64,000 bases of DNA from assembly GCA_034422515.1 (NCBI GenBank), contig DAOUJP010000020.1, forward strand, positions 65,590 through 129,589, given 5' to 3'. Positions 4,467 to 26,225 of the stretch are shown here, piece after piece; the stretch's first letter is position 1, and each line of letters begins with the position of its first letter. Under the pieces are notes generated by a model, which worked only from the letters and a program-made list of their open reading frames with translations, did not search any database and was not told the origin of the DNA. This DNA comes from Chloroflexota bacterium (GTDB taxonomy: Bacteria; Chloroflexota; UBA11872; UBA12225; JAJDUF01). The translations under genes and the position numbers were made by a program.

Positions 4467-4485
4467 CGTACCATGTTGCTCATGC

Positions 4486-4650
4486 CCCCCTATGGTCCCC
4501 CGTTCCGACGGGGGGACGGCCGTGGCGCACCTCTCTACGGCACAGCTGCCGCCGTATTCCCGACCCCGTCAGGACAGCACATTCCCTCCCCCGTCGGGAC
4601 GGGGGAGGGCTAGGGAGGGGGCCAGCCCTCCCCACCGGCCCCCTATAGGT
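4486..4650. repeat. Composite GC-rich palindromic REP/MITE-like element, copy A (unit 1 CCCCCTATGGTCCCCCGTTCCGACGGGGGGACGG; unit 2 CCCTCCCCCGTCGGGACGGGGGAGGGCTAGGG)
   Basis: Near-identical units recur at 6373-6545. Unit 2 is a perfect 12-bp inverted repeat (CCCTCCCCCGTC/GACGGGGGAGGG). Strictly intergenic. Confidence 0.8.
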
Positions 4651-5321: not shown

Positions 5322-6362
5322 ATGAGCGATGACGGTGATTCCAGAAAGGTGGATCCGAGCGGCCTGGAGCAGCTAGTAACCAAGCTGTTCAGCGCCGCTG
5401 GCGTCGGCGATGAGGACGCGCAGTTCATGGGACACGTGCTCACGGACGCCGACCTGCGCGGAGTTCACACGCACGGGACCCGGTTTGCGCCGCGCTACGT
5501 CGAGGGCCTGCGCGCCGGCGGCATGAAGGCGCAGCCCAATCGCCGGCTCGTGGTGGATGCCGGCGCGGTCGGCGTGTACGACGGCGACGGCGGCTTGGGC
5601 CACGTCGCGGCCGCTGAAGCCATGGAAATTGCCATTCGCAAGGCCAAGGAGCACGGGATGGGCAGTGTGGGCGTCCGGCACAACGGACACTGCGGCGCCA
5701 TCGCCTACTACGCCCAAATGGCCGTGGATGCCGGCTGTCTGGCGTTCGCTGCCACGACGGGAGGCACCGCTATCGCCCCGGTCGGCGGTATCGAGGCGCG
5801 CTGCGGTCTCAACCCGATCTCGTGGGCCGCACCGACGCGCCGCGGCTGGGCGTTCAACTTGGACATGGCGCCGTCGGTCGTCGCCGGCTCCAAGGTGGAT
5901 ATGGTCCGGCAACGCGGCGAGCGTCTGCCCTGGGGCTGGGCCATTGACGCCAAGGGCGAGCCGACGGATGATCCCATCGCTGCGCGGGAGGGGGGTACCT
6001 TGCTGCCCATCGGCGGTTACAAGGGTGTCGGGCTGTCAATGGCGACCGAAATCCTGTGCGGTGTCTTCTCCGGTGGCCAACTCGGAGCAACCGGCCGCGG
6101 CTCAGGACACCTATTCCAGGCGATTGACATCGAGCGTGTCATGCCGCTCGACGAGTTCACCGAGCGGATGGAGCGGATGATCGAGGACGTGAAAAGCTCG
6201 GCGCTGGCGCCAGGATCATCCGGCATCACGCTCCCCGGCGAGCTGGAGTGGCAGAAGCGGCAGGAGCACCTAGCCAACGGCATCCCCCTCGACCGGCCCA
6301 CCCGGCACGGCCTGCGCGAGGCAGCCGATGAGGCCGGTGCTCCCTACGACATCGAGCTATAG
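5322..6362 (+). CDS. Ldh_2 family (malate/L-lactate/L-sulfolactate dehydrogenase-like) NAD(P)-dependent oxidoreductase
   Basis: HTHGTRFAPRYVEGLRAGG...GHVAAAEAMEIAIRKAKEHGMGSVGVRHNGHCGAIAYYAQMA is characteristic of the Ldh_2 fold. Confidence 0.7.
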   Translation: MSDDGDSRKVDPSGLEQLVTKLFSAAGVGDEDAQFMGHVLTDADLRGVHTHGTRFAPRYVEGLRAGGMKAQPNRRLVVDAGAVGVYDGDGGLGHVAAAEAMEIAIRKAKEHGMGSVGVRHNGHCGAIAYYAQMAVDAGCLAFAATTGGTAIAPVGGIEARCGLNPISWAAPTRRGWAFNLDMAPSVVAGSKVDMVRQRGERLPWGWAIDAKGEPTDDPIAAREGGTLLPIGGYKGVGLSMATEILCGVFSGGQLGATGRGSGHLFQAIDIERVMPLDEFTERMERMIEDVKSSALAPGSSGITLPGELEWQKRQEHLANGIPLDRPTRHGLREAADEAGAPYDIEL

Positions 6363-6372
6363 TCGCACCGGC

Positions 6373-6545
6373 CCCCCTATGGTCCCCCCGTCCCGACGGG
6401 GGGACGGGGAGGGCGGCGCACGGCCATGGCTGGCGCGGACCATATCCCCTCCCCCGTCGCCAGGGCTGAGGGCCAAGCAGGCGGCGCAGTCTATCCCCTC
6501 CCCCGTCGGGACGGGGGAGGGCTAGGGTGGGGGCCGGCCCCTCAC
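6373..6545. repeat. Composite GC-rich palindromic REP/MITE-like element, copy B
   Basis: CCCCCCTATGGTCCCCCCGTCCCGACGGGGGGACGG at 6373-6408 and CCCCTCCCCCGTCGGGACGGGGGAGGGCTAGGGTGGGGGCCGGCCC at 6494-6540, matching copy A. Confidence 0.8.
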
Positions 6546-7636: not shown

Positions 7637-8017
7637 ATGCGCTGCACCGTAGACGATACGTTACTCGCCGAGGCTCAGAAAATCCTGCACACCGACAGCG
7701 CCGAAGAGACGGTTGCGGCCAGCCTGCGAGAAACCATCCGCAGCCGCGCCGAGCCGATGGAGCTACCGCTGTACCTGAGCAGCGATGAGAATTTCGAGCG
7801 ATTTCGCCGCGCGCTCCACCACCCACGCACACCGGCAGAGCTAGAGCGCCGCCGTGAGGCCATAGAGGCAGCGGACCGACTGCGGGCGGAGTTAGGTCCG
7901 GACCCGGATTTTAACACGGTGGATACCATCCGTGACATCCGTGGAGGCTGGGCTGACGATGAACCCGACGGGCAGACGAAGCCATCGGCCGGCAGCCGGT
8001 CTTCCCCGGCCGCTTGA
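7637..8017 (+). CDS. Type II antitoxin-like protein with an N-terminal VapB/DUF2191-type domain (MRCTVDDTLLAEAQKIL...) and a C-terminal extension
   Basis: The N-terminal ~40 aa match the 'MRTTLDIDDDLLAEA' antitoxin signature. No intact toxin gene follows. This is the last core-like gene before the low-GC noncoding stretch. Confidence 0.45.
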   Translation: MRCTVDDTLLAEAQKILHTDSAEETVAASLRETIRSRAEPMELPLYLSSDENFERFRRALHHPRTPAELERRREAIEAADRLRAELGPDPDFNTVDTIRDIRGGWADDEPDGQTKPSAGSRSSPAA

Positions 8018-8089
8018 CATTCGCACTGAGTCCCCGCATACTAGCCGGGAGGCGCTGTCATGGCTTCGCGTCGTGAGGTGGTTCAGCAA

Positions 8090-8118
8090 GGGTTGGAAAA
8101 CCAACCCTTTTCTTTTTT
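8090..8118 (+). terminator. Rho-independent terminator (GGGTTGG-AAAA-CCAACCC followed by TTTTCTTTTTT)
   Basis: Perfect stem with a tetraloop followed by a T-rich tract. This is unusual in such a GC-rich genome and lies in the lower-GC junction region. Confidence 0.6.
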
Positions 8119-8718
8119 GGATCCACCACCGCACGATCTACCAAACTGGACAAAATCCAGAACCTTTATGCTGCGTTTCAAGCTGACGGGACAGAATCGG
8201 TAGTCTGGCCGTCTCAATCTCTCCTGCTCTTGCCGCTCCATTCCTGCCAGGCTGACGCCTTCACGCTGGACCTCAAGGGAAATCTCACAGGACCTCATGT
8301 GAGTTAGTCATAGCACTGCGGCCGTAAGTCTGCTCGTGACACTACCACTCCACGGTCGTCGGCAGGCCGCGTTCTTGCGACTCCCGGCCCCGTCGACATC
8401 GCTAGGTAGAACGAACGGGCCGCAAACTCGCCTGTAGCAGCCCTGGCTGGCTCGGAGTATCATAATGGTGGAGTGGGAAGCGACACCAGCGTGTCCCCTT
8501 CGTCCCTTGGTCTGGGTTCGTCACGTGTGTGGCTGGATACAGCAACCGGATTCGAGCCGCTTTCGGCCCAGTTGTCCCAAGTGCATCGGTTCGGGAAACT
8601 CTCATAGGGGCCTCACGGCCAAAGGCCGCCGCCGCGAAATCGGGGGCAGTTCAGTTGGCATGGCAGACCGTATGCCACTGCCGATGAGGTAGGGACTGTC
8701 ATGGCGGCGTGCGGCTGT

Positions 8719-8733
8719 GATTTCCGGTCTGTC
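8719..8733 (+). promoter_or_regulatory. Conserved 15-nt motif GATTTCCGGTCTGTC (copy 1), ~70 nt upstream of the sigma-factor operon, followed at +30 by GAGAGTTGG
   Basis: Exact 15-mer repeated at 13692-13706 with the same downstream G(A/G)GTTGG box at +30/+31. Both copies are intergenic and precede an operon start. Confidence 0.5.
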
Positions 8734-8804
8734 TTTCTACGCGCGGTTAAAATTGAGAGTTGGTTGCATCTAGTCACCGAGCAGAACACGCTATGAGTTA
8801 GCAG

Positions 8805-9632
8805 ATGGGCCATGTGACCACAGAGCAAGATACATCGTGCTTGCCGGAGCCATTGACGCGCAAGAACGCGGATGGTGAGGTCTATTGCCGCCAGGCGGCT
8901 GTGGACAGGCAGATCCAGACGGCTCTTGGGCTTGACAGTGGGGAACTCCGAACCCGCTCCGAGGTGACGGACAAAGCGTCGCCCGACTTCCTCAAGGAAG
9001 AGGCGCTGGTCTATCTGATTCGACACTACCACCGGGCAGCGGATCAGGGCTGTGTGAACTTCCTGTCGGAGGCCCTACTTCGCCGCTGTGCCACCTGGAT
9101 CAGTCATCAACTGCACAGCTTGGATAATGAAGCGGCAGAGGAAGGGTATTCGGACGTCGTGACGCGACTGTTCGAACGGATCCTCGACTTAGACAGTGAC
9201 CGCGGCGACTTCCTCCAAGTCCGATTCTGGATGGTACTCAAGAAACTTGCCGTGGATGTCTTTGACAGACAGCTACGGCAGCTCACCCGTGGACGAGACA
9301 GCATCCCTCTGACAACTATTGCCGGACATGACGGCGAAGACGACAAGGCGGCAACACGTGGAGCTCGGTTGCGCACGCCGGGCGCGCTCGCGACACGGGC
9401 CGCCGAATCGGAGGCGATCGAGCGCACCGAAATCCGCGAGGCCCTGAGCCAGTTGGACGAGCCTCTTAGGTCAGCGTTCCTGCTACGGCATTTCGTGGGG
9501 TTGCCGATCGAAGATCAGGACCCAGCCGTGCATACGATTAGCCGGCGCTTCGGCAAGACGCCGCGCACCATCCGGAACTGGCTCGCTAGAGCGGGTAAGT
9601 GCTTGGCAATGTGGCGGGGAGGGCAGGGATGA
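8805..9632 (+). CDS. Sigma-70 family (ECF-like) RNA polymerase sigma factor
   Basis: The C-terminal region-4 HTH (LSQLDEPLRSAFLLRHFVGLPIEDQD...ISRRFGKTPRTIRNWLARAG) matches the sigma-70_r4_2 pattern, and the region-2-like segment is upstream. Its stop overlaps the next gene by 4 nt. Confidence 0.6.
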   Translation: MGHVTTEQDTSCLPEPLTRKNADGEVYCRQAAVDRQIQTALGLDSGELRTRSEVTDKASPDFLKEEALVYLIRHYHRAADQGCVNFLSEALLRRCATWISHQLHSLDNEAAEEGYSDVVTRLFERILDLDSDRGDFLQVRFWMVLKKLAVDVFDRQLRQLTRGRDSIPLTTIAGHDGEDDKAATRGARLRTPGALATRAAESEAIERTEIREALSQLDEPLRSAFLLRHFVGLPIEDQDPAVHTISRRFGKTPRTIRNWLARAGKCLAMWRGGQG

Positions 9633-10273
9633 ACAGACCAACCGAGCCTGAGCGGTTGGAGGGTGTACTCGACGCCTATGTGGCGTCTGGTGCCGGCCCG
9701 AATGCCGCGCTTGACGAGTGGATTCGGCGCTATCCGGAGTTTGAGCGAGAACTAATCGAGTTCGCGGCCAGTTGGAGCCTGATGAAATGGTTGCCTCACG
9801 CTCCTGACGCCGAGGAAGTTGACGAGACAACGCTGGTGCTGCGAGGAATGAGTGTCGTTCAGGACTTGCTCCACAGGCAGTCATCAGAGTCAGCCTCAGA
9901 CCCTGTCACGCCCATCGGGAGTCTGATAACGGAAGGGCGAGCACAAGGTTTGGATCCCCGCCGGTTGGCGCAGGCCGTTGGAGTGGGGGACAGCTTGCTG
10001 AGTAAGCTCGACCGCCGCTTAATCACCCCCGCCTCAATCCCGCAAGAGCTGATCGAGCGCCTTGCACAGGTTACGCAACGCAAGGTTACGACCATCACCG
10101 CCTATCTTCAGCAGGGCCCGACATTGACGGCTGCGGCTGAACATCGCTCCGAGCAAGCACCGAAGCTCATGGAGCCGGAGGATTTCTTTGATGCCGTTGG
10201 CGCCGATCCAACAATCAGTCGTGAGCAGGCTGACTACTGGTTCGCACTTGGGCGATCCATGGGTGCATTATGA
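9629..10273 (+). CDS. XRE-type HTH domain protein (ImmR-like repressor / anti-sigma-like adaptor candidate)
   Basis: Central HTH (LDPRRLAQAVGVGDSLLSKLDRRLI). Its 4-nt ATGA overlaps with the genes on both sides suggest translational coupling in a 3-gene operon. The Met at 9629 is preferred over the track start at 9599. Confidence 0.5.
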   Translation: MNRPTEPERLEGVLDAYVASGAGPNAALDEWIRRYPEFERELIEFAASWSLMKWLPHAPDAEEVDETTLVLRGMSVVQDLLHRQSSESASDPVTPIGSLITEGRAQGLDPRRLAQAVGVGDSLLSKLDRRLITPASIPQELIERLAQVTQRKVTTITAYLQQGPTLTAAAEHRSEQAPKLMEPEDFFDAVGADPTISREQADYWFALGRSMGAL

Positions 10274-13200
10274 GCCACTGGGGCGAAATAAGAAGGCGGG
10301 CGAGGGCGCAACGCGCCGAAGTGCTTCGAGAGACTAGGGGAGACTTGTCAGCTGAATCGTTGCTTACCGCGGCCGAAAGGTTGACCGGCTTCGAACGAAT
10401 CGGCCTGCCAGTTGGCGACTCGTTGCTGGACGGCGCTGATGCAAAACTCCAACACAACATGGAGCGGGTTTGGTTCAACCGCGAAGTCGAACCTAGGCTG
10501 GCTCGCTTCAATCAAGCCCACGAGTATGCACATCTCTGGTTACACCCCGAACGGGGCAACCAGCTAGAGTGTGGCCTTGATCCTGAGGCTGTTGAGGAAC
10601 CCCTACCCATTGGCGTGAATCGAGTAGAGGGGTATGGCCCTGAGGAGTTGCGAGAGCGTGAGGCGAACGTCTTTGCGCGGGAGTTCCTGCTCCCGACCGA
10701 TGTCCTACGCGAGTGGTACGAGACCGATAATGCAAGCGCGAATGAAGTTGCAGATAGACTGGGACTTCCAGAGGGGTTGGTCTTGCAGCAGATGGCGCGG
10801 GCGCTTCTTACGCCAGAAATCCCCTCTACGCACGTATCACCTGGCGATACAGACCAACGACCGTTAGACCCCAGCCAGGAGGAAGCTGCTCACGCCCCAC
10901 GCGGCCCCCTACTCTTGGAGGCCGGTCCAGGTACCGGCAAGACCCGTACCCTCATCGGACGGATCGTCTTTCTTCTTAAGCAAGAGGTGCCACCAACCGC
11001 GATACTTGCACTGACGTTCTCGAACCGCGCAGCTGAGGAGATGCGATCACGTGTGGCGGAGGCCGAACCAGCCGCCGCCCTCCGTATCTGGATTGGGACC
11101 TTTCATGCGTTCGGACTTGAGCTATTGCGCAAGTACGGTACACGACTAGGACTGCCGCCCCATATCAGCGTACTCGACCCATCTGAATCGATAGTCCTTG
11201 TGGAGCGCATGCTGCCCGAGTTGGACTTGGATTACTACCAAAACCTATATGACCCCACCTTCTATCTCCGGGACATCATGGCCGCGATCTCGCGCGCCAA
11301 GGACGAGTTGGTGGGGCCAGAGGAATACGCCGCACTCGCCGAGAGCATGCGCAATGAAGCGGCCACCCCCGAGGAGATCGAGAGGGCAGAGCGGACGATC
11401 GAGGTAGCACGGGTTTACACCGCCTACCAAGCAGCGCTTGACTGCGCCCATCTGCTTGATTTTGGCGACCTCATCTTCAAGGCTGTGTCGCTGCTCAGGG
11501 CACACGCCGATGTGCGAAACGCCCTCCGCAGCAGCTATCGTCACGTCTTGGTCGATGAGTACCAAGATGTCAACCGGGCCAGTGCCCTCCTCCTAAGAGA
11601 GATCGCGGGTGCCGGCGCTGGTCTCTGGGTGGTTGGAGATACGCGGCAGGCGATCTACCGGTTCCGGGGTGCTGCTCCGGCGAACATGCGGCACTTTAGC
11701 GAAGATTTCTCTGGCGCGATAGTGAAGACCCTCCGACGCAACTACCGGTCGCAGCCGGTGATCGTCGACGTGTTCGCCGGGCTGGCGCCTGAGATGCGCG
11801 CGGCACGAGGCGGACCGATCTTCATGCCCTGGGAGCCAAACCGATCGCTCTCCGGTGGGCACGTCTTGATGGAGGTTGCCGACGACCTGACTGCGGAGGC
11901 CGAGGGGTTGGCGAGGGAGATTGAGCGCCGGCACGCCGCCGGCATTCCTTACAGCGAGCAAGCGGTCCTGTGCCGCTCGCACACCAACCTTGGTAGGTTC
12001 GGAGCCGAACTCGAGCGTGTCGGTGTGCCTGTTCTGTACCTAGGCAATCTCTTTGAGCGGCCTGAGGTGCGTGACATGCTTGCCCTTTTGTCCCTCGCGT
12101 GCGAACCAGACGGGAACGGCTTGGTCCGCGTTGCGCGCTTTTCCGAATACAGAATCCCGCTCAACGACGTGCTCGCTCTAATTGAGCTGGCTCGCGACCG
12201 AGAGGTTCCCTTTCCGGAGGCTTTGGGCCTAGCGGGAGAAGCCGCGACGGTCTCGGCGCACGGACAAGCGCGGCTCGCCCTTTTGGCTCATCACCTTGAT
12301 GGTTTGCACCACGTTGGGCCCTGGAGACTGCTCGCGCACTACTTGTTCGACCGAAGCGGCTATCTACATCACCTCTTAGCCGACCAGTCCGTAGGGGGAC
12401 AGCAGCGCCTGCTCGCACTCTATCAACTCCTCCAGTTCGCCCACGAGCAGCGACCAGGGGTTCCCGGTGAGCCAGCCGACTCGAAGCTCCGCCTACTTCG
12501 TTACATTCGCCGGCTCGAGATCTATGGCGAGGAAAAGCCACTCCGGCAGGTACCAGTCTGGGCGGACGATATCGAGGCGGTCCGGCTGCTCACTGTCCAC
12601 GCGAGCAAGGGGCTTGAGTTTCGAGCGGTTTACCTACCGGCACTAGGCCGCGGCATCTTCCCGGCGAGCCGCCAAGCACAGACATGTCCGCCACCCACGG
12701 GTATGCTTGCTCCCGACCACGACGACCTGAGCAACCACGACGAAGAAGAGGAGTGCCTCTTCTTCGTCGCGCTATCCCGCGCTAGAGACATACTGTGCCT
12801 CTCCCGCGCCCGCCGGTACGGTGCCCGGAATAGCAATCCGTCAGCTCTGCTCGTCGAGATCGCTGATCTGTTACCTGCCGATCCGGGTGGCCAAGTTACT
12901 TGGCCATCCAGCGCACCGAGTCCGGCTGCTGCACCTGAGCCGATGCCGGCAAACGAGACTTACTTGGCGGCTGACCTGGACGTATACCTCCGCTGTCCCC
13001 GGCAGTACTTCTACGAGTCTGTTCTGGGGCTGAGTCGCCAGCGTGAGGACTCTGGATACGTCGAGTTTCACCGCTGTGTCTATCGCGTACTGCGCTGGAT
13101 GGCGGAGCAGCGTGCCTCCGGACAACCCGCTGATGAAGCCACGGCACTTGCATACCTAGCCCGGGTCTGGGAGGAGCAAGGGCCGCACGGGCATGTCTAT

Positions 13201-13671
13201 GAGGAGTTGTATCGTAATTCAGCTATTGCTCTGGTGCAGCGGGCGGCAAGACGGCCATTCACGTCACGTGGCGCCAAGACCCAGCCCCAGTGGGAGGTGC
13301 GAGTCCCGCTGGGTCGTGTTCGTTTCGTCCCGGACCACGTCGAGGTACTCAATGATGGCACTGAGATCGTTGAACGTATCCGTACTGGGCGTCCGACGAA
13401 GAGCGAAGCAGGAAAGGACATCTACGCCCTGTACGTGATGGCAGCCCGGGATGCCGAGCCACTCGTTCAACGGAGAGTGCAAGTACGATACTTGTCCACC
13501 GATGACGTGGAGCCAATCAACCTCAAGCCGCGAACCATCAAGACTCGGCTAAACCACTACAACGATGCTATCGCTGGGATCCTGCGCGATGATTTCTCGC
13601 CGCGTCCCAATGACCGTGTCTGTCCGCGCTGTCCTCACTATTTCATCTGTCCGCTAGGCGAGGACGCCTAA
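10270..13671 (+). CDS. Fusion protein: ImmA/IrrE-family Zn metallopeptidase (HEXXH) + UvrD/Rep-family SF1 helicase + C-terminal RecB/Cas4-like PD-(D/E)XK nuclease with an Fe-S cysteine cluster
   Basis: HEYAHLWLH (HExxH, DUF955-like) near the N-terminus. Walker A GPGTGKTRT, motif II VLVDEYQDVN and motif VI VHASKGLEFRAVYL of UvrD-like helicases. The C-terminal domain has an early Cys (YLRCPRQYFYE), a DIYALYV (QhxxY-like) motif and a terminal CPRCPHYFIC triad, as in Cas4/AddB nucleases. Confidence 0.7.
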   Translation: MSHWGEIRRRARAQRAEVLRETRGDLSAESLLTAAERLTGFERIGLPVGDSLLDGADAKLQHNMERVWFNREVEPRLARFNQAHEYAHLWLHPERGNQLECGLDPEAVEEPLPIGVNRVEGYGPEELREREANVFAREFLLPTDVLREWYETDNASANEVADRLGLPEGLVLQQMARALLTPEIPSTHVSPGDTDQRPLDPSQEEAAHAPRGPLLLEAGPGTGKTRTLIGRIVFLLKQEVPPTAILALTFSNRAAEEMRSRVAEAEPAAALRIWIGTFHAFGLELLRKYGTRLGLPPHISVLDPSESIVLVERMLPELDLDYYQNLYDPTFYLRDIMAAISRAKDELVGPEEYAALAESMRNEAATPEEIERAERTIEVARVYTAYQAALDCAHLLDFGDLIFKAVSLLRAHADVRNALRSSYRHVLVDEYQDVNRASALLLREIAGAGAGLWVVGDTRQAIYRFRGAAPANMRHFSEDFSGAIVKTLRRNYRSQPVIVDVFAGLAPEMRAARGGPIFMPWEPNRSLSGGHVLMEVADDLTAEAEGLAREIERRHAAGIPYSEQAVLCRSHTNLGRFGAELERVGVPVLYLGNLFERPEVRDMLALLSLACEPDGNGLVRVARFSEYRIPLNDVLALIELARDREVPFPEALGLAGEAATVSAHGQARLALLAHHLDGLHHVGPWRLLAHYLFDRSGYLHHLLADQSVGGQQRLLALYQLLQFAHEQRPGVPGEPADSKLRLLRYIRRLEIYGEEKPLRQVPVWADDIEAVRLLTVHASKGLEFRAVYLPALGRGIFPASRQAQTCPPPTGMLAPDHDDLSNHDEEEECLFFVALSRARDILCLSRARRYGARNSNPSALLVEIADLLPADPGGQVTWPSSAPSPAAAPEPMPANETYLAADLDVYLRCPRQYFYESVLGLSRQREDSGYVEFHRCVYRVLRWMAEQRASGQPADEATALAYLARVWEEQGPHGHVYEELYRNSAIALVQRAARRPFTSRGAKTQPQWEVRVPLGRVRFVPDHVEVLNDGTEIVERIRTGRPTKSEAGKDIYALYVMAARDAEPLVQRRVQVRYLSTDDVEPINLKPRTIKTRLNHYNDAIAGILRDDFSPRPNDRVCPRCPHYFICPLGEDA

Positions 13672-13691
13672 ACCTCACGGTGCCGGGCAGA

Positions 13692-13706
13692 GATTTCCGG
13701 TCTGTC
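13692..13706 (+). promoter_or_regulatory. Conserved 15-nt motif GATTTCCGGTCTGTC (copy 2), ~105 nt upstream of the Ubl-E2-JAB-E1 operon
   Basis: Identical to the motif at 8719-8733 and followed by TTAGGGTTGG at +31. It lies in the intergenic region between the helicase-nuclease gene and the Ubl gene. Confidence 0.5.
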
Positions 13707-13812
13707 CCTGCCCCAGCGATTGTCCTATTAGGGTTGGCAAGTGACACCCTGGCAGTCGCGGAGCGTCACTCACTTCAGCAACCCCACATTCCGTGTGAGA
13801 AAGGACAGACAG

Positions 13813-14334
13813 ATGAGTCAACCTGATGCTACAGACCACATCGAGCTCTTTATCCAGGGCGAGGGGATCCCCAAGATCGCGCTGGTGAAGGTACATCCCG
13901 AGTATACGGTCGCGGACCTCATCAAGGTGGCCCGCGAGCATAGCCTGAGCGTACCCGAGGGATCGGAGGTGTTTGTCCTCCTAGAGAACACCGACGCCCC
14001 CCTGCTGTTGGATGCGAAGATTGATGAGGTCGGCCTAGCCCCACGTAGCCGCGTGCATATCCATCGCTGTCGGCGAGTGGAGGTAACGGTCAATTTCAAC
14101 GCAGATCAACTCAAAGGATTCTTCCCACCATCGGCGACACTCGCGTGGGTCAAGAAGTGGGCAGTCGGCAAGGACGGCTTCGGCATGGCGGATGTGGATG
14201 CCACCGAGCACCTGCTTCAGATGTGCGGCTCGACTGACCGGCCTGACGAGGACGTGCATATCGGCACGCTAGTGAAGCTTTCGAACGGGACCCTTTGTTT
14301 CGATCTGGCCCCCAAACAGCGCGTAGAGGGATAA
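13813..14334 (+). CDS. Ubiquitin-like (tandem beta-grasp, ISG15-like) protein ending in Gly (BilA-like / polyUbl)
   Basis: 173 aa, large enough for two beta-grasp units. The first (HIELFIQGEGIPKIALVKVHPEYTVADLIKVAREHSL...VFVLLEN) resembles ThiS/MoaD/Ub folds. The C-terminal residue is Gly (…RVEG*). It is immediately followed by E2-, JAB- and E1-like genes. Good RBS (AAAGGA) before the ATG at 13813. Confidence 0.55.
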   Translation: MSQPDATDHIELFIQGEGIPKIALVKVHPEYTVADLIKVAREHSLSVPEGSEVFVLLENTDAPLLLDAKIDEVGLAPRSRVHIHRCRRVEVTVNFNADQLKGFFPPSATLAWVKKWAVGKDGFGMADVDATEHLLQMCGSTDRPDEDVHIGTLVKLSNGTLCFDLAPKQRVEG

Positions 14335-14337
14335 GGC

Positions 14338-14826
14338 ATGTCTAAGGGCGTAATGGGGGTAGACGAGCAGGTGTTTCGCGCGCACCTCGCAGCCGGCGCG
14401 TTCCAGAGTGGCGTCGACCGGGGCCGCTGGCGCTTGCTCGCGCTCGACTGGCCACATGCCCTGATCGCCATTCAGGCTGCCGAGAGGGCCGGCGGCCCAG
14501 CCGAATATGCGCTGCGCTTCGAGTGCATGAACTACCCTCAAACACCGCCGACAGCTCAGCCATGGGACGCTGAGAGAAACACGCCGCTTGCACCAGCCCG
14601 CTGGCCAACCGGAACAAGGCGAGTATCGCTTGCCTTCAATCCCGGATGGAAGCACGGGGGCTGCCTATATCTGCCTTGTGACCGGCTTTCGATTGAGGGC
14701 CACGATGCTTGGCGGACCCAGCATCCTTCGATGATCTGGTCGCCAGCGAGCGACATCACACATTACCTGAGGATTGTCCATGATCTTCTCACTTCGAGCG
14801 ATTATTCGGGCCCTCGCGGCGCCTGA
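14338..14826 (+). CDS. E2-like (UBC-fold) ubiquitin-conjugating enzyme homolog (BilB-like)
   Basis: 162 aa with a candidate catalytic Cys in the AFNPGWKHGGCLYLPCD segment (analogous to HPN...C of E2s). Assigned mainly from its conserved position between the Ubl and the JAB/E1 genes. Confidence 0.45.
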   Translation: MSKGVMGVDEQVFRAHLAAGAFQSGVDRGRWRLLALDWPHALIAIQAAERAGGPAEYALRFECMNYPQTPPTAQPWDAERNTPLAPARWPTGTRRVSLAFNPGWKHGGCLYLPCDRLSIEGHDAWRTQHPSMIWSPASDITHYLRIVHDLLTSSDYSGPRGA

Positions 14827-15304
14827 GCACCGGCTGAGTTGTCCCAGAGGAGTCTGGCGACGAGGGATCGCTGAAGTTGCACGCCGGGGAGAGGGACGGC
14901 ACGAGAGTGGCGCCTTCCTGCTTGGTCGCCGGCATGGTCTGCGCGGACACGTCGTGCGATTTGCCTACTACGATGACTTCGACCCATCCTGCCTTAAATC
15001 CGGCATTGTCGTGTTCGATGGAGCGGGGTTCGGACCGCTGTGGCAACTCTGCCGGCAGACCGGGCTGAGTGTCCTTGCCGATCTGCACACGCATGGCGGC
15101 TCTGGCCGGGCACGTCAGAGCGAACTTGACAGGGACAACCCCATGATCGCCCAGCCCGGTCACGTAGCGCTCATCGTCCCGAAATTTGCTCGCGACTTCA
15201 GGATGGAGGATGTGAGTATCTACGAGTACCTCGGTGGTCATAGTTGGCGCGATCACGGCAGTGCCCGTGGTGGGCGCTTCTTCTACACAGGGATATGGGC
15301 ATGA
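14774..15304 (+). CDS. JAB/MPN (JAMM) metalloprotease, deubiquitinase-like (BilD-like)
   Basis: Complete JAMM motif: upstream Glu (HESGAFLLG), then HTHGGSGRARQSELD (HxHx8Sx2D). The ORF overlaps the E2 gene and the true start may be downstream. Its stop overlaps the E1 start (ATGA). Confidence 0.65.
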   Translation: MSMIFSLRAIIRALAAPEHRLSCPRGVWRRGIAEVARRGEGRHESGAFLLGRRHGLRGHVVRFAYYDDFDPSCLKSGIVVFDGAGFGPLWQLCRQTGLSVLADLHTHGGSGRARQSELDRDNPMIAQPGHVALIVPKFARDFRMEDVSIYEYLGGHSWRDHGSARGGRFFYTGIWA

Positions 15305-16701
15305 CAGTTACCTCAAACGTTGGACCGGATCAGTTGCACCGGCTCGTGAAGTTGGCGCTCGACACCGGCGAGGCAGCGAGCCTCGATGAGGCCCAGCGGC
15401 TCTTTGGTAGCTATCGCCTCGGCATCGTGGTCGGAAGCGATATCGCGCATTCCCCGACGCTGCAGGCAGCCGTGTTGACCGCCGTCAACGCGGGCCGTCG
15501 CAGTTTTCTTGGTGGTGTGTCCGTCGACGGCGCAGTTGATGTGCCGCTCCTCATCCCGTGGGGTCGCTGTCGCACGCTAGAGGAAGCCATCGTGGACCTA
15601 CGGGGGACCAGCATGGCTGTTGTCCCCGGGATTCCGCGCATCGTGATCGGCGACACATCCGCACCGTCAGGCGAGGCGGAGTTCGCCGTGCGCGCGACTT
15701 TCGATGGGTGGTGTGGGGGCATCATACCTCTTGACCAAGGTCACCGTCTGCCAGAGCGCCAAGAGTGTGTTCCGGCCGGTGTGCTCGCCGGGGCGCTCGG
15801 AGTTGCCGAGGCATTTCAGTTCGTGCGGGGCGACAGCGCTATTGCGGGCCGGCGGGATGTTGGGCTGTCATTGTGGCAACCTGAAGCCGACACCAATTGG
15901 CTCGCTGCTGGCGAGCGGGGGCCGACTTTGGAGAGGCTGCCAGCGAGAGCTTGGCTGATCGGCCTCGGTCATCTTGGGCAGGCGTTTCTGTGGACACTCG
16001 GACTCCTGCCATATGCGGCGCCTGGAGACGTGAGTCTCGTCCTCCAAGACTTCGATGCACTCGTCGAGGCAAACGACAGTACCTCACTACTCACGACACG
16101 GGCTAGCTTCGGTGTGAAGAAGACACGGGCCATGGCCCGCTGGTGCGAAGCGCGCGGGTTCCGCACTTCGATTGTGGAACGCCGATTCGCTGCCGACTTT
16201 CGGGTTGCGGCAGACGAACCAAGCGTTGCCCTGTGTGGAGTTGACAACGCGCTGGCCCGAGCCGACCTCGAGGATGTTGGCTTCGGCCGCGTCATTGAGG
16301 CCGGGCTCGGCGCTGGCACGCGGGAGTACCTTGCGTTTCAGATACACACTTTCCCGGCACGCCGAGCCGCGAGATGCCGCTGGGGAGCGGACGTAGATCA
16401 CTTGAACGACGGGAATGACAATGCCGATAATCCGGCGTACCGCGCATTAGCCCACGAGGGGCTCGATGATTGTGGAATCACGACGCTGGCCGGACGCACT
16501 GTCGGCGCGTCATTTGTGGGAGCGGTCACGGCCGCAGTGGTCGTCGCCGAACTCATGAGGATGGCAATGGGTGGACCCCGATACGAGGTCGTGGATGGGA
16601 GCCTGCACTCACTTGAACTGCGCCAGGCGGTGGTGTGTGCCGAAGGGGCACCGTTCAATCCAGGAACGGCGGCTGCAACTCTCAAGACCGACGGTCAGTG
16701 A
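15301..16701 (+). CDS. E1-like ubiquitin-activating enzyme (ThiF/MoeB/HesA superfamily; BilC-like)
   Basis: Rossmann GxGxxG (AWLIGLGHLGQAFLWTLGLL) and ThiF-like downstream segments (GVDNALARADLEDVGFGRVIEAGLGAG). Co-operonic with the Ubl, E2 and JAB genes. Confidence 0.6.
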   Translation: MTVTSNVGPDQLHRLVKLALDTGEAASLDEAQRLFGSYRLGIVVGSDIAHSPTLQAAVLTAVNAGRRSFLGGVSVDGAVDVPLLIPWGRCRTLEEAIVDLRGTSMAVVPGIPRIVIGDTSAPSGEAEFAVRATFDGWCGGIIPLDQGHRLPERQECVPAGVLAGALGVAEAFQFVRGDSAIAGRRDVGLSLWQPEADTNWLAAGERGPTLERLPARAWLIGLGHLGQAFLWTLGLLPYAAPGDVSLVLQDFDALVEANDSTSLLTTRASFGVKKTRAMARWCEARGFRTSIVERRFAADFRVAADEPSVALCGVDNALARADLEDVGFGRVIEAGLGAGTREYLAFQIHTFPARRAARCRWGADVDHLNDGNDNADNPAYRALAHEGLDDCGITTLAGRTVGASFVGAVTAAVVVAELMRMAMGGPRYEVVDGSLHSLELRQAVVCAEGAPFNPGTAAATLKTDGQ

Positions 16702-17096
16702 CCCATCCTGCGCTACCGTCACGTGGCAGACTCCAGAGTCTAGGAAGTTCTCAACCTGCGAGTCAACTCAAGGCCGAGCTAGCATCATCACGTGTGATCC
16801 TCAATATGGAGACCGGGGCCGCGACACTCCTACAAGCATGCCACACCCAGGAGCACTCAAGTGCTGACCACCGAAGGGGCCATGGGATCGAAGGAGCATT
16901 TCGCGAAGCGGCATTCCACGCTCCCCGCTTCACTAACTGTGCAAGGGTACTCGTGGGGAGTGGCACTGGACAGTGCATGGCATCCAAACGGTCTCGATCC
17001 ATTATGATGAGGGACTGTAGACAAGGAACTGGTGCCATCCCCATGGGGTTGTGACCGCGCCGGGGTGCTTGCACCGATAGAGAGGACTGATGGCCG

Positions 17097-20000
17097 TTGG
17101 ATACTGCTACCGTGATCTGTGAAGGACAGGTGCTGACCGGGCCGCTGTTCAGCGAGCCGATGCGGGTGGAGACGGTGCGCCCCAACGGCCCCGATTCCGT
17201 GGAGGCCGGCTTGGTCGGGCAGCAGACGGAGCGGTTCCGGCGGGTGACGCTGACGGCAGCCGACATCGCAAGCCTCTCCGTCGCCAGTGCTGCGCTTACC
17301 TACGACGGAGACGGACAACTCCTGCGGCTCGGCCTCCAGGCGTATACCCTCGGCATCGCCCACGAGTTCGACCCCTACTTCGGCCTCTCCATCTCGCGGG
17401 TGGACCCGCTGCCCCATCAACTCGAAGCGGTCTACGACTACTTCATGAAGCTCCCCAGCGTGCGGTTCCTGCTGGCCGATGATGCCGGTGCCGGCAAGAC
17501 GATTATGGCTGGCCTGTTGATCCGCGAGCTCAAGCTGCGTGGGTTGGCCGAGCGGACTCTGGTCGTGTGCCCAGCCAACCTGACCTTTCAGTGGCAGCGC
17601 GAGTTGAAAGAGAAGTTCGATCAGCAGTTCCTGGTACTGAAGGGGAGCGATGTCCGCGACCAGTTTGGCGTCAACCAATGGCTCAGCCAAAAGCAGGTGA
17701 TTACTTCCCTCGATCTGGCCAAGCGCGAGGATATCTTGCCGGGCTTGCGACAGGTGCGCTGGGACCTGGTCATCGTAGATGAGGCCCATCGCATGTCAGC
17801 GCGAGACGAGACGCACAAGAGCCAACGCTACCGGCTGGGCGAGCTCCTCCGGGACAGCGCCGACAACTTGCTGCTTCTGACCGCCACGCCGCACAAGGGC
17901 GATCCGCACAACTTCACCCTCTTCCTGCAATTGCTCGACCAGGACGCCTATGCCGACGTGCAGTCCATCCGCGCGGCGATGGATAAGCAGCAGGCGCCCT
18001 TCTACCTGCGACGGACGAAGGAGGCGATGGTCTACTTCCCAGAACGTCAGCCGGACGGGGAGTGGGCCGCCCGGCCCGTGTTCACGAAGCGGATCACCCA
18101 CACGGCTGGCTTTGCTATCGCCGGGGATGAGTTCGAGCTGTACCAGGAGGTGACGCGGTTCGTGAAGCGGCAGAGTGCCCGCGCGGCGGCGCAGGGTGAC
18201 GACCGGCGAGCACGCGCCGTCGGCTTCCTCATGTCCCTCTACCAGCGGCGGCTCGCTTCCAGCACCTACGCCATGCGCCGCTCCCTGGAAAATCGGGCGA
18301 AGCGCCTGGCGGAGAACCTCAAGCAGGCCGAGGTCCTGGCACGGACAGTACCGCCCGACTTCTCCAACTGGGAAGCGGAGGAGTTCGAGGAGCTAGAGGA
18401 CCACGAACGCGAGCGCTTGGAGCGACTGCTGGACGCCGTCACGCTGGCCCGCAACGCCGAGGAGGTGCGCCGGGAGATCACGGCGTTGCAGGGCCTCGCC
18501 AGCACAGCCAAGTCCCTCGAAGGGTCCGGGAGCGAAGCGAAGTTGAGCCGGCTCAAGGAAATACTGCGCGAGCAAGGATTCTTCGACCACCCGGACCAGC
18601 AGTTGCTCATCTTCACCGAGTTCAAGGACACCCTCGACTACCTCCTGGAACGGTTGCAGGCCTGGGGGTTCCGCGTGGGAAGCATCCATGGCGGCATGAA
18701 GCCGGGGTCACGCGACGAACCAGGCACCCGGCTCTACACCGAGCAACAGTTCCGGGAGGGCGCCATCCAGGTGCTGGTGGCCACCGAGGCCGCCGGCGAG
18801 GGCATCAACCTCCAGTGCTGCCACATCCTCTTCAACTACGATATTCCCTGGAACCCCAATCGGCTGGAACAGCGTATGGGACGTATCCACCGCTACGGCC
18901 AGCGCTTCGATTGTCTCATCTTCAACTTTGTGGCCACCAACACCATCGAGGGCCGCGTGCTCCAGCGGCTGCTCGATAAGCTCCAAGAGATCAGGGACGC
19001 CCTCGAAGATGATGCCGTCTTCAATGTCGTCGGGGAGGTGTTGCCCGCCGCTCACGTGGATCGCGTGTTTCGGGACTACTACGCTGGCCACCTGGGCGAC
19101 GCTGACCTGGAAGACCGGCTCCTGCGGGACGTGGACGAGCGCCACTTCCGGGCCATTTGCCAGAATGCGCTGGAGGGGTTGGCGGCCAAGGGGCTCAACC
19201 TGGAGCTGCTCGTCGAGCGCCGCGCCCGCGCCCAAGCGCGCCGGATGGTGCCCGAGACCATCGCCCGCTTCCTGGCCGAGAGTGCTGGCAGCGCGTCCCT
19301 CCCCCTTCCCCCCGTGCGCCGCTGGCCACACACGTTTCAGCCGGGCCGGACGCCAACCGCCTTGCGGCGCTACGAGGGCGAGCCGGACTGGCAGCTCCCG
19401 GCGCTGGCGGTGCGCTACCCGCGAATTTCGACGGACCGGCACACGGCGGAAGCGCACAATCTGGAATGGGTTACGCCCGGCCATCCACTGTTCGAAGCCC
19501 TGCGCCGCCACGACCTGGAGCTGGCCCGGGAGGCCTTCGCCAGGGGGGCCTGCTTCCACTCCCTCCAACACGAGACCCCGGCGCGCCTCGACTGCTACAA
19601 GGCGCAGATCGTGGACGGCCTCGGCCACATCATCCATGAGCGGCTGTTCACCGTGGAGTTGGCGGAAGGCCGAGAACCCCGCCTCCGGGAGCCGGACATC
19701 CTCGGCAACCTGACGCCTGCCGCCGCCCCGGACGGCTTGCCTGCCGTGGCTACCCTGCCGGAAGCGACCGAGTGGCTGCACTCGGAGACGCTCGGACCGT
19801 TCATTGACGAGGTGCGTGCGGAGCGCCTGCCGGAGGTCGAGCGTATCGCCGATCATGTCGAAGTGGCCTTGGGCGAGGTGCTGTCCCGAGTTGACCAGGA
19901 GGTCGGCCGCGCCGGCGACGAGGTGCGGAATCAGATCACCGGTGCCGAGGGCCGCTTCGCCCAGGCCGAGGCCCGGCAGGATGAGGCACTGGCACGCCGC

Positions 20001-20540
20001 GAGCGGCGACGGCGCGAACTGACCCAGCAACGGGCGCTGACGCTCCAGGGCGTGGAGCGGCTGGCCAGCGTGCTGATCCTCCCACATCCTGAACGGGGCA
20101 GTGACGAGGTCCAACGGCTGCGGCCCAACCCGGAGACCGAGCAGGTCGCCATGCGCGTGGTCATGGCGCACGAGCAGGCCCAGGGACATCTCGTCACCGA
20201 CGTTCACGAGCAGAACCTGGGCTACGACGTGACCAGCTTGAATAAGGAGACCGGCGAGTCGCGCCTGATCGAGGTGAAGGGCTTGGCCGCTGCCGCTGGC
20301 ACTATCCTGCTGACGCCCAACGAGCGCCGCGTGGCGGAAGACCGCCGCGATTGCTACTGGCTGTACGTCGTCACGAATTGCGCCAGAGAGCCGCGGCTCC
20401 AGGACCCGATCCGGGACCCGGCCCGGTTCCCCTGGCACGAGGTCAGCAAGGTGCAGCATTATTGGCTGGAGCTGAACGCCATGACCCAACCCATGCAGAT
20501 CCGAGAGCAACGGGCGCCATACGGAGGACGGGACTCTTGA
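17097..20540 (+). CDS. SNF2-family helicase with a C-terminal DUF3883-like restriction-endonuclease-fold domain ('anti-phage-associated helicase')
   Basis: TTG start with a GAGAGGA RBS. SNF2 motifs: ADDAGAGKT (I), LVIVDEAHRMS (II), LLLTATPHKG (III), helicase-C (QRMGRIHRYGQ). The C-terminal TPNERRVAEDRRDCYWLYVVTNC...DPARFPWHEV matches DUF3883. Confidence 0.7.
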   Translation: MDTATVICEGQVLTGPLFSEPMRVETVRPNGPDSVEAGLVGQQTERFRRVTLTAADIASLSVASAALTYDGDGQLLRLGLQAYTLGIAHEFDPYFGLSISRVDPLPHQLEAVYDYFMKLPSVRFLLADDAGAGKTIMAGLLIRELKLRGLAERTLVVCPANLTFQWQRELKEKFDQQFLVLKGSDVRDQFGVNQWLSQKQVITSLDLAKREDILPGLRQVRWDLVIVDEAHRMSARDETHKSQRYRLGELLRDSADNLLLLTATPHKGDPHNFTLFLQLLDQDAYADVQSIRAAMDKQQAPFYLRRTKEAMVYFPERQPDGEWAARPVFTKRITHTAGFAIAGDEFELYQEVTRFVKRQSARAAAQGDDRRARAVGFLMSLYQRRLASSTYAMRRSLENRAKRLAENLKQAEVLARTVPPDFSNWEAEEFEELEDHERERLERLLDAVTLARNAEEVRREITALQGLASTAKSLEGSGSEAKLSRLKEILREQGFFDHPDQQLLIFTEFKDTLDYLLERLQAWGFRVGSIHGGMKPGSRDEPGTRLYTEQQFREGAIQVLVATEAAGEGINLQCCHILFNYDIPWNPNRLEQRMGRIHRYGQRFDCLIFNFVATNTIEGRVLQRLLDKLQEIRDALEDDAVFNVVGEVLPAAHVDRVFRDYYAGHLGDADLEDRLLRDVDERHFRAICQNALEGLAAKGLNLELLVERRARAQARRMVPETIARFLAESAGSASLPLPPVRRWPHTFQPGRTPTALRRYEGEPDWQLPALAVRYPRISTDRHTAEAHNLEWVTPGHPLFEALRRHDLELAREAFARGACFHSLQHETPARLDCYKAQIVDGLGHIIHERLFTVELAEGREPRLREPDILGNLTPAAAPDGLPAVATLPEATEWLHSETLGPFIDEVRAERLPEVERIADHVEVALGEVLSRVDQEVGRAGDEVRNQITGAEGRFAQAEARQDEALARRERRRRELTQQRALTLQGVERLASVLILPHPERGSDEVQRLRPNPETEQVAMRVVMAHEQAQGHLVTDVHEQNLGYDVTSLNKETGESRLIEVKGLAAAAGTILLTPNERRVAEDRRDCYWLYVVTNCAREPRLQDPIRDPARFPWHEVSKVQHYWLELNAMTQPMQIREQRAPYGGRDS

Positions 20541-22255
20541 CCCCAGAACGCCTCCAGGCACTCATCGCCGGCGGCGAAACCCTCGCCGTAGAGTTCAAAG
20601 GCGAGGCGGCCGCGCCCTTGGGGGATCGGGAGCTTGTCGAAACGGTCGTCTGTCTGGCTAACCGGAGCGACGACGGCCCCGGCTGGCTGCTGGTCGGAGT
20701 TGAGGATGACGGCCACGTGAGCGGCGCCCGTGCCCGCCACGAGACCGGGGGGATCGACCCCGTGCGTATCCAGGCGCTCGTGGCGAACCGCACGCGCCCC
20801 CCGCTTACCACGCGCGTCGCAGTGGATTCGAGCGGCGGACGGGATATCCTCATCATCGAGGTCCCCGCCGTTCACCGGCCCGTCGGTACGGCGGACGGAC
20901 GCTACCTGCGGCGCGCCATCGGCGGAGATGGCAAGCCATCCTGTGTGCCGTTCCACTTCCACGAGATGCAGTCGCAGCAGGCTGATCGCGGGATGCTCGA
21001 TCATGCTGCACTCCGGCTGGACGGCATCGGGATGGACGCGCTCGATCCGCTGGAGTTCGAACGCTACCGGCGCACAATCCGAGAGCACCGGCACCGTGGG
21101 GACAACGCGTTGCTCGATCTCAGCGACGTGGAACTGGCCAAGGCCCTGGGCGCGGTGGAGCACACCAATGGTGCCGTGACCGTCCGGGTGCTGGGCCTGC
21201 TGCTCTTCGGACGGGAGGACGCGCTGGCTGCCGCCCTGCCGGCGCACGAGGTGGCGTTCCAGGTGCTCGCCGGCAACGACGTGCAGGTCAACGACTTCTT
21301 GCGCTGGCCGCTGCTCCGGGTCATGGAAGAGCTGGCGGCCCGCTTTGAGGCGCGCAACCGCGAGCAAGAGGTCCACGTGGGCATGATCCGCGTCGGAGTG
21401 CCCGATTATCCCGCCCGCGCTTTTCGCGAGGGGGTCGCCAATGCCTTGATCCACCGGGATTACACCCGTCTTGGGGCCGTGCATGTGCAGTGGCGGGAAG
21501 ACCGGCTGGAAATCTCGAACCCCGGCGGCTTCCCGCTGGGAGTGCGCCTGGACAACCTGCTGGTCACTGCGCCGCGCCCCCGCAATCCGCTGCTGGCCGA
21601 TGCGTTCAAGCGCGCCGGCATCGTCGAACGCACCGCGCGGGGCATTGATACCATCTTCTACGAACAGCTTCGCAATGGCCGCCCCGCCCCCTCCTACGAC
21701 CGCAGCACCGAGGCCGGCGTGACCCTGGTGCTCCCCGGCGGCGTAGCCCACCTCGGATTCGTGCGGCTCGTGGTGGAGGCGGGCCGGGAGAGCAGCCCGC
21801 TTTCCCCGGACGAGCTGCTGCTCCTGACCGGGTTACAGCGGGAGCAGCACATAACGGCCGGCGAGGCAGCCGCAATGATACAAAGGGGGGCAGCGGATGC
21901 GGAGCATCTCCTGATGCAGTTGGGGCAGCGCGGTCTCGTCACCGTGCGGGGTTCGCACCGGCGGCAGGGGTTCCGGCTATCGGAAGCTGCGGCCCGGCAG
22001 CTTGGTGACCGCGTGGATGCCCAGCGCGGGCGCGCTGCACCAATCCGGCATGACGAGCTGGTGCGCCGGTACGTTGCGAGTCATGGCTCGATTTCACGCA
22101 AGGAAGCCGCGCGGCTCTGCGCCATCTCCGACTCGCGGGCCTATAGACTGTTGAAGCGGCTGGAGTCGGCCGGGGTCCTCCGGCGCATTGGCACACGCGG
22201 CCGGAACGTCCGCTATGAGCAAAACGCCGAGAAACGCACGGCGCGCGTTTCCTAA
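20537..22255 (+). CDS. AlbA_2 (Schlafen-like 'divergent AAA') + HATPase_c_4 domain protein (putative nucleic-acid-binding regulator)
   Basis: The N-terminal ETLAVEFKGE signature is typical of AlbA_2 (PF04326). The C-terminal part is winged-helix-like. The TTG start at 20537 overlaps the helicase stop (TTGA). Confidence 0.55.
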   Translation: MTPERLQALIAGGETLAVEFKGEAAAPLGDRELVETVVCLANRSDDGPGWLLVGVEDDGHVSGARARHETGGIDPVRIQALVANRTRPPLTTRVAVDSSGGRDILIIEVPAVHRPVGTADGRYLRRAIGGDGKPSCVPFHFHEMQSQQADRGMLDHAALRLDGIGMDALDPLEFERYRRTIREHRHRGDNALLDLSDVELAKALGAVEHTNGAVTVRVLGLLLFGREDALAAALPAHEVAFQVLAGNDVQVNDFLRWPLLRVMEELAARFEARNREQEVHVGMIRVGVPDYPARAFREGVANALIHRDYTRLGAVHVQWREDRLEISNPGGFPLGVRLDNLLVTAPRPRNPLLADAFKRAGIVERTARGIDTIFYEQLRNGRPAPSYDRSTEAGVTLVLPGGVAHLGFVRLVVEAGRESSPLSPDELLLLTGLQREQHITAGEAAAMIQRGAADAEHLLMQLGQRGLVTVRGSHRRQGFRLSEAAARQLGDRVDAQRGRAAPIRHDELVRRYVASHGSISRKEAARLCAISDSRAYRLLKRLESAGVLRRIGTRGRNVRYEQNAEKRTARVS

Positions 22256-22343
22256 ACGCACTCGTGCTATTAAACGCACGCGAACGGCTCATTAGCAGCG
22301 GCCGCTCAACTGGAGAGGGCATCCGATTCTCAGGAAGGTTTGA

Positions 22344-23210: not shown

Positions 23211-23215
23211 ATGAC

Positions 23216-26191: not shown

Positions 26192-26225
26192 TTACTGGAC
26201 GCACTTTGGAACACGGAGGGATGAC

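Follow-up and report, generated by a model that had tools for sequence, protein, structure and literature searches.

A repeated 15-mer in a Chloroflexota genome probably marks two near-identical ECF-type promoters of a sigma-linked Bil cassette

Why should two neighbouring operons be preceded by the same 15 nucleotides? The question is raised by a stretch of 64,000 nt from a Chloroflexota bacterium (contig DAOUJP010000020.1, positions 65,590 to 129,589; this whole stretch is called the window, and its own numbering is used below). As a preliminary description of this DNA had stated for the places examined there, the 15-mer GATTTCCGGTCTGTC occurs in the window exactly twice, at 8719–8733 and 13692–13706, both on the plus strand, and both copies fall between genes. 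The placement at operon starts given there is also correct. Copy 1 ends 71 nt before the ATG (8805) of a gene for a sigma factor that resembles those of the extracytoplasmic function (ECF) type, and copy 2 ends 106 nt before the ATG (13813) of bilA, the first gene of a bilABCD operon, whose products are similar to ubiquitin, to E2 and E1 enzymes and to a JAB deubiquitinase. The comparison of this locus with its homologues suggests that each 15-mer is the -35 half of an ECF-type promoter and that these two near-identical promoters are most likely read by the sigma factor encoded between them.

The identity of the two 15-mers carries little of this argument. Of exact direct repeats that are 15 nt or longer, the window has 17, compared with about six in first-order Markov simulations, and the repeat by itself was therefore dropped as evidence. 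Around the 15-mer, the identity between the two sites reaches 19 of 21 nt (GGCTGTG... versus GGCAGAG...). For a bipartite pattern, TTTCCGGT-N15-CGATT, up to one mismatch being allowed, there are three matches in the window against 0.05 expected, and two of the three are the sites in question. Their significance derives from conservation in other loci and not from the identity of the 15-mers.

A scan of one genome per species gave 26 loci, and a BilD alignment used to scan metagenomes yielded another 80, in which BilD is 48–77% identical to that of the window. The metagenome sample was picked by similarity to the BilD of this cassette, so that whatever is nearly universal in it is nearly universal in that clade. 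About 60 loci, which belong to Chloroflexota, Acidobacteriota, Gemmatimonadota and Actinomycetota, have kept a cassette of seven genes. It encodes the sigma factor, a second protein that we call P2, a fusion of an M78 peptidase with a UvrD-type helicase and a PD-(D/E)XK nuclease, and BilA to BilD. The order sigma–P2–M78/helicase/nuclease–BilA–BilB–BilC–BilD is kept in about 22 of the 26 genome loci, whose hosts are Chloroflexota (mostly Dehalococcoidia), one Acidobacteria metagenome-assembled genome (MAG), one Gemmatimonadaceae MAG and one actinobacterial MAG. OZ240207.1, OY761449.1, OY760104.1 and OZ253578.1 are among the complete genomes with the cassette. The sigma module is also present in most of the metagenome Bil loci that extend far enough upstream.

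In nearly all of the genome loci, the longest string common to the region upstream of the sigma gene and to the gap between the helicase gene and bilA is the local version of TTTCCGGTYT. Alignments anchored on TTCCGG display an invariant CGATT exactly 16 nt downstream and a weaker TAGG about 7 nt further on, while neither the spacer nor the upstream flank shows conservation of sequence. Before the sigma gene (24 sites), the consensus is cTTTCCGGTcTg...CGATTA...TAgG, and before bilA (22 sites), it is ATTTCCGGTCTGtC...CGATTGTCcTAGTAgGG. Both upstream regions carry the motif in 43 loci, with a spacer of 16 nt in 81 of the 86 sites and of 15 or 17 nt in the others, and the motif is found at both sites even where the sigma factor is only 35% identical. 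It has no dyad symmetry beyond CCGG and is always oriented towards the downstream genes. The recurrence of the same bipartite motif at both positions in 43 loci bears out the earlier proposal that the two sites share a cis-element.

In the window, all parts of this motif lie on the plus strand. The promoter upstream of the sigma gene, P_sig, consists of a -35-like block TTTCCGGTCT at 8721–8730, which is held by copy 1 of the 15-mer; a -10-like block CGGTT at 8744–8748, which has one mismatch to CGATT and is located exactly 16 nt after TTCCGG; and a third, weaker block AGAGTTGG (consensus TAGG) at 8756–8763, the putative transcription start, which includes GAGTTGG. In the bilA promoter, P_bil, which sits in the 141-nt gap before bilABCD, the same -35-like block TTTCCGGTCT at 13694–13703 is held by copy 2, the -10-like block CGATT at 13717–13721 again follows TTCCGG by exactly 16 nt, and the third block TAGGGTTGG at 13729–13737, with TAGG at 13729–13732, would be the start and overlaps GGGTTGG (13731–13737). 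The 15-mer is taken as the holder of the -35-like block because the CGATT-type block downstream is its conserved partner.

The partner proposed in the preliminary description was a different one, a GTTGG box that was thought to follow the 15-mer after 30–31 nt at a fixed spacing. Both boxes exist, GAGTTGG at 8757–8763 and GGGTTGG at 13731–13737, but they start 38 and 39 nt from the first base of the 15-mer, i.e. 23 and 24 nt past its last base, so that the distance was misstated and the spacing differs by 1 nt between the two sites. Moreover, the conserved block is CGATT, and it is in this locus only that the two sites have GTTGG in common. We rejected GTTGG as a -10 element or second box since it is not kept at both sites elsewhere; its overlap with the TAGG block is limited to the AG(A/G)G at its start.

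No promoter of the sigma70 type is predicted in either the gap upstream of the sigma gene or that between the helicase gene and bilA, and an Rfam scan of 8000–17500 found nothing relevant. Two other elements at these sites were considered and rejected. One is a terminator-like hairpin at 8713–8729, found in a consensus scan, which is weak and to which nothing corresponds at the second site. The other is a minus-strand promoter with CCGGAAA as a GGAA-type -35 element; it would face away from the conserved genes, and leftward of the motif nothing is kept.

The two sites of a locus vary together. In 15 of 23 distinct combinations, against an expectation of 7.3, both sites have the same -10 pentamer, an agreement that one of 20000 permutations reached. 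Rare -10 variants that occur at both sites of one locus are CGACT (L026, L072), CTATT (L030, L033, L038, L076), CGAAT (L065), GGATT (L021, L091), GGACT (L077) and GTACT (L056), and rare -35 variants that do so are TTGCCGG (L108), TTCCTT (L048) and TTCC(G/T)C (L044). Judging from these sequences, such within-locus co-variation is what would be expected if a reader encoded in the locus co-evolved with its sites. Outside the core, the two sites are alike at 16.8 of 45 positions within a locus versus 14.6 of 45 between loci, a difference that 0 of 20000 permutations reached.

The presence and absence of the motif follow the sigma gene. In Bil loci that have no sigma module (L032, L041, L046, L100, L036, L067), no TTTCCGGT-like motif is found within 300 nt upstream of bilA; in one of them (L067), this region contains a TTGACT-17-TATAAT promoter instead. 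In L049 (6843–8212), where the sigma factor and P2 are present without the helicase, the motif is kept. In L056 (780–2572), the sigma gene is followed by a gene for a protein of about 328 residues, the M78-helicase is missing, and TTCCGG-N16-GTACT is found at both sites. This protein has only the N-terminal 84 residues of P2 in common with P2 (36% identity); it has no detectable similarity to the HTH (helix-turn-helix) region, and its C-terminal part is unrelated to P2 and has no Pfam match. Truncated contigs of this type are L054, L060 and L071. With this pattern, L049 and L056 included, the motif tracks the sigma gene and neither the helicase nor the HTH region of P2, and the regulatory module seems to come in several sensor versions.

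Some cassettes look decayed. In L019 (10753–19020), about 3.8 kb are inserted between P2 and the helicase, which is itself split. L013 has a sigma module without Bil genes and without a recognisable motif, and L018 retains only the sigma factor and a truncated P2.

The sigma factor of the window (8805–9632, plus strand) is 275 residues long and carries an N-terminal extension of about 100 residues. Its assignment draws on Pfam, TIGR02937 and an AlphaFold2 model. The Pfam family Sigma70_r4_2 is matched above its cutoff with 33.6 bits, and 316 homologues were found in the databases. The model is of moderate confidence (mean pLDDT, the predicted local distance difference test score, of 73.7), with residues 165–208 disordered. 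Its best matches in the PDB according to Foldseek are all members of the sigma70 family, ECF sigma factors first: sigmaE (1or7, E 6e-4), then AlgU, SigL and SigH, with about 190–215 aligned columns and E-values up to about 1e-2. Two segments, GDFLQVRFW in region 2.3–2.4 and PRTIRNW in region 4.2, hardly vary within the family and likely read the DNA; their conservation fits that of the promoter, which is likewise nearly invariant. The genes of the sigma factor, P2 and the M78-helicase-nuclease overlap by ATGA. Such stop/start overlaps are common for pairs of sigma and anti-sigma factors.

P2 (9629–10273, plus strand; 214 residues), whose start overlaps the stop codon of the sigma gene, is made up of an N-terminal helical domain, an XRE-type HTH domain (residues 99–160, approximately), a conserved disordered linker and C-terminal helices. 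The HTH is of the XRE kind found in CapH, DdrO and ImmR and is structurally nearest to that of CapH, as judged by fold comparison of a model of moderate confidence. This comparison is the only informative one, since the P2 sequence has no significant match in the PDB or Pfam. The N-terminal domain (residues 6–86) is predicted to be helical with moderate confidence; it has no sequence match in Pfam or the PDB and is the sole part of P2 that is kept in the L056-type protein, whose gene still adjoins that of the sigma factor. In the linker, the segment EHRSEQAPxL (residues 166–180, approximately) is almost invariant, yet disorder is predicted for it (pLDDT below 50). Short linear motifs typically look like this, and, as far as the model goes, the segment is a candidate site of cleavage by, or docking of, the M78 peptidase.

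The third gene of the operon (10270–13671, plus strand), whose start in turn overlaps the stop codon of P2, encodes a protein of 1133 residues in which, according to Pfam, an IrrE/CapP-like M78 peptidase is followed by a superfamily 1 helicase of the UvrD type and a PD-(D/E)XK nuclease. The peptidase domain (Peptidase_M78, E 5.5e-12) spans residues 60–173 and contains HEYAH, an instance of HExxH. This motif, GPGTGKT, DEYQD and the C-terminal Cys cluster are all intact.

These parts could be assembled into a switch. P_sig would drive the operon of the sigma factor, P2 and the M78/helicase/nuclease protein, and P_bil that of bilABCD, each promoter comprising TTTCCGGTYT, a spacer of 16 nt counted from TTCCGG, CGATT and, about 7 nt on, a purine-rich TAGG as the probable transcription start. 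By reading both, the sigma factor would activate its own synthesis and switch on Bil. P2 may keep the system off, either by holding the sigma factor inactive with its N-terminal domain or by repressing the promoters with its CapH-like HTH, perhaps over the TAGG block, or by both. Once the helicase-nuclease meets phage or damaged DNA, the M78 domain would cleave P2 and the sigma factor would be released; the roles given here to P2 and M78 are suggested by analogy with CapH/CapP, DdrO/IrrE and ImmR/ImmA. That the cassette as a whole is a horizontally portable, self-contained immunity switch, in which a RecB/AddA-like M78-helicase-nuclease senses phage or broken DNA and cleaves P2, with its sigma-binding domain and its CapH-like HTH in one protein, thereby freeing a private sigma factor for two private promoters, is a tentative proposal, which we hold with clearly less confidence than the reading of the promoters themselves.

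Other explanations of the repeated motif have to be weighed against recognition by the cassette's sigma factor. The two 15-mers could be a chance repeat or a neutral relic of local duplication without function. Exact repeats of this length are common in the window (the 17 pairs mentioned above), and the bare pattern TTTCCGGTYT-N13-CGATT gave at least 120 matches in viral contigs that are unlinked to the cassette. These viral matches were set aside as chance, being single, with none linked to cassette genes and only 3 with a TAG[GA] box. Chance or neutral duplication is extremely improbable and, for practical purposes, excluded by the conservation across loci: the bipartite motif is found at both homologous positions in 43 independent loci in which the surrounding intergenic sequence has completely diverged. 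Alternatively, the motif could be a promoter read by an alternative sigma factor or an activator of the host. The atypical character of the cassette's sigma factor, whose reading of the promoters is a prediction, leaves some room for this explanation, which we nevertheless consider improbable, given that the same motif accompanies the cassette across at least four phyla, that it is absent from Bil operons without a sigma gene and that rare variants shift together at both sites, as for co-evolution with a reader encoded in the locus. Somewhat less improbable, though still unlikely, is that the conserved blocks serve chiefly as an operator to which P2 binds as a CapH-like repressor, as in operons controlled by CapH/CapP, and that the sigma-like protein acts otherwise. 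An operator for the HTH protein had been the second choice of the preliminary description, and P2 has a bona fide XRE/CapH-like HTH that could bind part of the conserved DNA. The motif, however, is asymmetric and oriented, and its two different blocks at a fixed distance of 16 nt have the geometry of a promoter and not that of the dyad that one would expect of a dimeric XRE repressor. Furthermore, the -35 and -10 blocks persist together with the sigma gene where only the N-terminal domain of P2 remains and the M78-helicase is missing. The two explanations could also be compatible, with P2 binding over the TAGG/+1 block of a sigma-dependent promoter; the TAGG block could then be the site of P2.

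Recognition by the cassette's own sigma factor, which was the first choice of the preliminary description together with autoregulation and activation of the ubiquitin-like operon, is thus best supported by the comparative evidence: the conserved, oriented, bipartite motif, the variants common to both sites, and the tracking of the sigma gene by the presence and absence of the motif. Besides the HTH of P2, several observations weigh on the other side. The sigma factor is divergent, with region 4 as the only region found by Pfam and region 2 undetected, and it scores 30.9 with TIGR02937, the NCBIfam model of the ECF superfamily, against a cutoff of 42.9 (E 1.8e-7, profile positions 25–159). The TTTCCGGT block lacks the AAC core that is typical of the -35 elements of many ECF promoters. 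There is no convincing terminator between the two operons, so that P_bil may add to read-through transcription and need not be the sole driver of bilABCD. The co-variation of the two sites could be explained in part by gene conversion. Their similarity outside the core could reflect base composition, and it is given little weight because lineages differ in this respect. Finally, the third match to the bipartite pattern in the window (TTTCCAGT...CGATT, 22954–22981, minus strand, one mismatch) lies inside an open reading frame (ORF) and has no obvious target. It runs antisense in ORF 22344–23210, which has a low G+C content at third codon positions and no Pfam match; it has neither a TAGG block nor a minus-strand gene downstream, and 0.05 such matches are expected per window by chance.

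The operon downstream of P_bil comprises four plus-strand genes with strong matches to PADLOC profiles: the ubiquitin-like BilA (13813–14334, 173 residues, E 7.8e-47), the E2-like BilB (14338–14826, E 1.5e-66), which also matches the Pfam family DUF7665, the JAB deubiquitinase-like BilC (14774–15304, E 6.8e-61) and the E1-like BilD (15301–16701, E 6.5e-170). The start of BilD, which overlaps the stop codon of BilC, was set at 15301 because the database copy (P0241) has 466 residues.

The leader of bilA contains a small stem-loop, CACAU-UCC-GUGUG (13785–13797, plus strand), just upstream of the bilA Shine–Dalgarno sequence GAAAGGA (13799–13805, plus strand). In distant loci (L001–L026), a stem-loop is kept 1–3 nt before the Shine–Dalgarno sequence with differing stem sequences: UCCCAC/GUGGGA in most, GCCCGCC/GGCGGGU in L015, GUGCAC/GUGCAC in L021 and UGCCCC/GGGGCA in L023–25. 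The CACAU/GUGUG stem of the window is weak, and stems in other loci are stronger. This pattern suggests that an RNA element involved in stability, processing or control of translation is conserved here. A more extensive structure was rejected: shuffled sequence folds at least as well as the entire leader (z +0.74).

The G+C content between 8 and 18 kb is about 0.59–0.64, lower than that of the flanks, and would fit an acquired island. Directly downstream of Bil, a DrmD-like SNF2 helicase with a NOV_C domain (17097–20540) is followed by a Schlafen/AlbA_2-HATPase_c_4 protein (20351–22255), a DUF1156 protein (23159–26191) and a DUF499 protein (26955–29753), and the region 17097–29753 looks like a further defence cluster. 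On the other side, an ORF for a VapB-like antitoxin (7637–8017; Pfam VapB_antitoxin, E 2.6e-5) lies ahead of a strong hairpin that resembles a terminator, AAGGGTTGG-AAAA-CCAACCCTT with a run of T (8088–8109), and then of about 700 nt without an assigned gene up to P_sig; the ORF and the hairpin may mark the left edge of the island. Further to the left, G+C-rich palindromic repeats (4484–4615 and 6371–6527) flank an Ldh_2 gene (5322–6362). They include a 32-nt repeat, CCCTCCCCCGTCGGGACGGGGGAGGGCTAGGG, with copies at 4584 and 6496, as well as one of 18 nt with copies at 4484 and 6371, and look like an intergenic family similar to repetitive extragenic palindromic (REP) elements.

How anti-phage systems are silenced and switched on is an active question. 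The regulator modules described so far for immune operons are CapW/BrxR, CapH/CapP and CapK/CapS, plus one pair of an ECF sigma factor and its anti-sigma factor, DdvS/DdvA. The present cassette points to another solution, a private sigma factor with two private promoters, tied to a CapH-like protein and an M78-helicase-nuclease and hard-wired to a large Bil clade in several phyla. If this is true, it would rank as a fourth class of regulator for immune operons, next to CapW, CapH/CapP and CapK/CapS, and as anti-phage defence's first cytoplasmic sigma switch that is gated by a protease, and a large Bil clade would have to be redefined as a seven-gene system. The analysis supplies precise parts, namely promoters of about 28 bp, a candidate cleavage segment and catalytic motifs, and, should the switch be orthogonal, it would offer synthetic biology a compact sigma/promoter pair.

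In the presence of bilA to bilD in the canonical order and with strong PADLOC matches, the immune operon itself is like Type I of Bil, the bacterial ISG15-like anti-phage system (Millman 2022; Hor 2024). The searchable papers on Bil and on regulators of immune operons mention neither a sigma factor nor a UvrD-type helicase as a part or a regulator of Bil, and no paper was found that links a sigma factor or an M78-UvrD fusion with Bil in a literature search to which most subscription journals were inaccessible; the novelty of the sigma-linked Bil cassette is accordingly provisional. The control region resembles the autoregulated promoters of ECF (group 4 sigma70) factors in its -35 and -10 blocks, its rigid spacer of 16–17 nt and its CG-containing -10 element, as well as in its arrangement, with one copy before the sigma gene itself, others before a small regulon, and an overlapping partner gene next to the sigma gene. 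Transcription from ECF-type promoters starts some 6–9 nt past the -10 block and depends on the cognate sigma factor; for the two promoters of the window, starts near 8756–8758 and 13729–13731 are predicted. The -35 elements of many ECF promoters are of the GGAAC/GAAC type, and here TTTCCGGTYT is found instead. Also unlike typical ECF systems, the sigma factor of the cassette has an N-terminal extension of about 100 residues and scores below the curated threshold, and its partner belongs to no recognisable anti-sigma family.

The pairing of an M78 peptidase that has an intact HExxH motif with an XRE-type HTH protein beside an immune operon is shared with CapH/CapP and, likewise, with DdrO/IrrE and ImmR/ImmA, in which DNA damage activates an M78 peptidase that cuts an XRE repressor. 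CapH and CapP are two small proteins whose genes usually diverge from the operon and share its promoter region; they de-repress an ordinary promoter: CapP is activated by single-stranded DNA and cleaves CapH. The pair accompanies about 15% of Type II Bil operons and is almost always divergent. Unlike in CapH/CapP, the M78 domain of the cassette is the N-terminus of a helicase-nuclease of 1133 residues, P2 carries a further conserved domain at its N-terminus, a dedicated sigma gene belongs to the cassette, and the genes all run in one direction and overlap.

The nearest precedent at the level of a whole system is DdvS/DdvA of Myxococcus xanthus. The ECF sigma factor DdvS drives four promoters, its own included, of an island that contains CBASS (an anti-phage signalling system that is based on cyclic oligonucleotides) and type III-B CRISPR, and DdvA is a membrane anti-sigma factor with a periplasmic TPR-CHAT module that is probably processed by regulated intramembrane proteolysis (PMC11506125). 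Both systems are defence loci with an ECF or, in the cassette, ECF-like sigma factor of their own and dedicated promoters, here predicted ones, that include that of the sigma gene, and in both, a cognate partner would act as the off-switch until a signal comes, a role that for P2 is proposed here. Unlike in DdvS/DdvA, the parts of the cassette are all cytoplasmic, the partner is an XRE-type HTH protein, the predicted protease is an M78 domain joined with a UvrD helicase and a nuclease in one protein, and the target is Bil.

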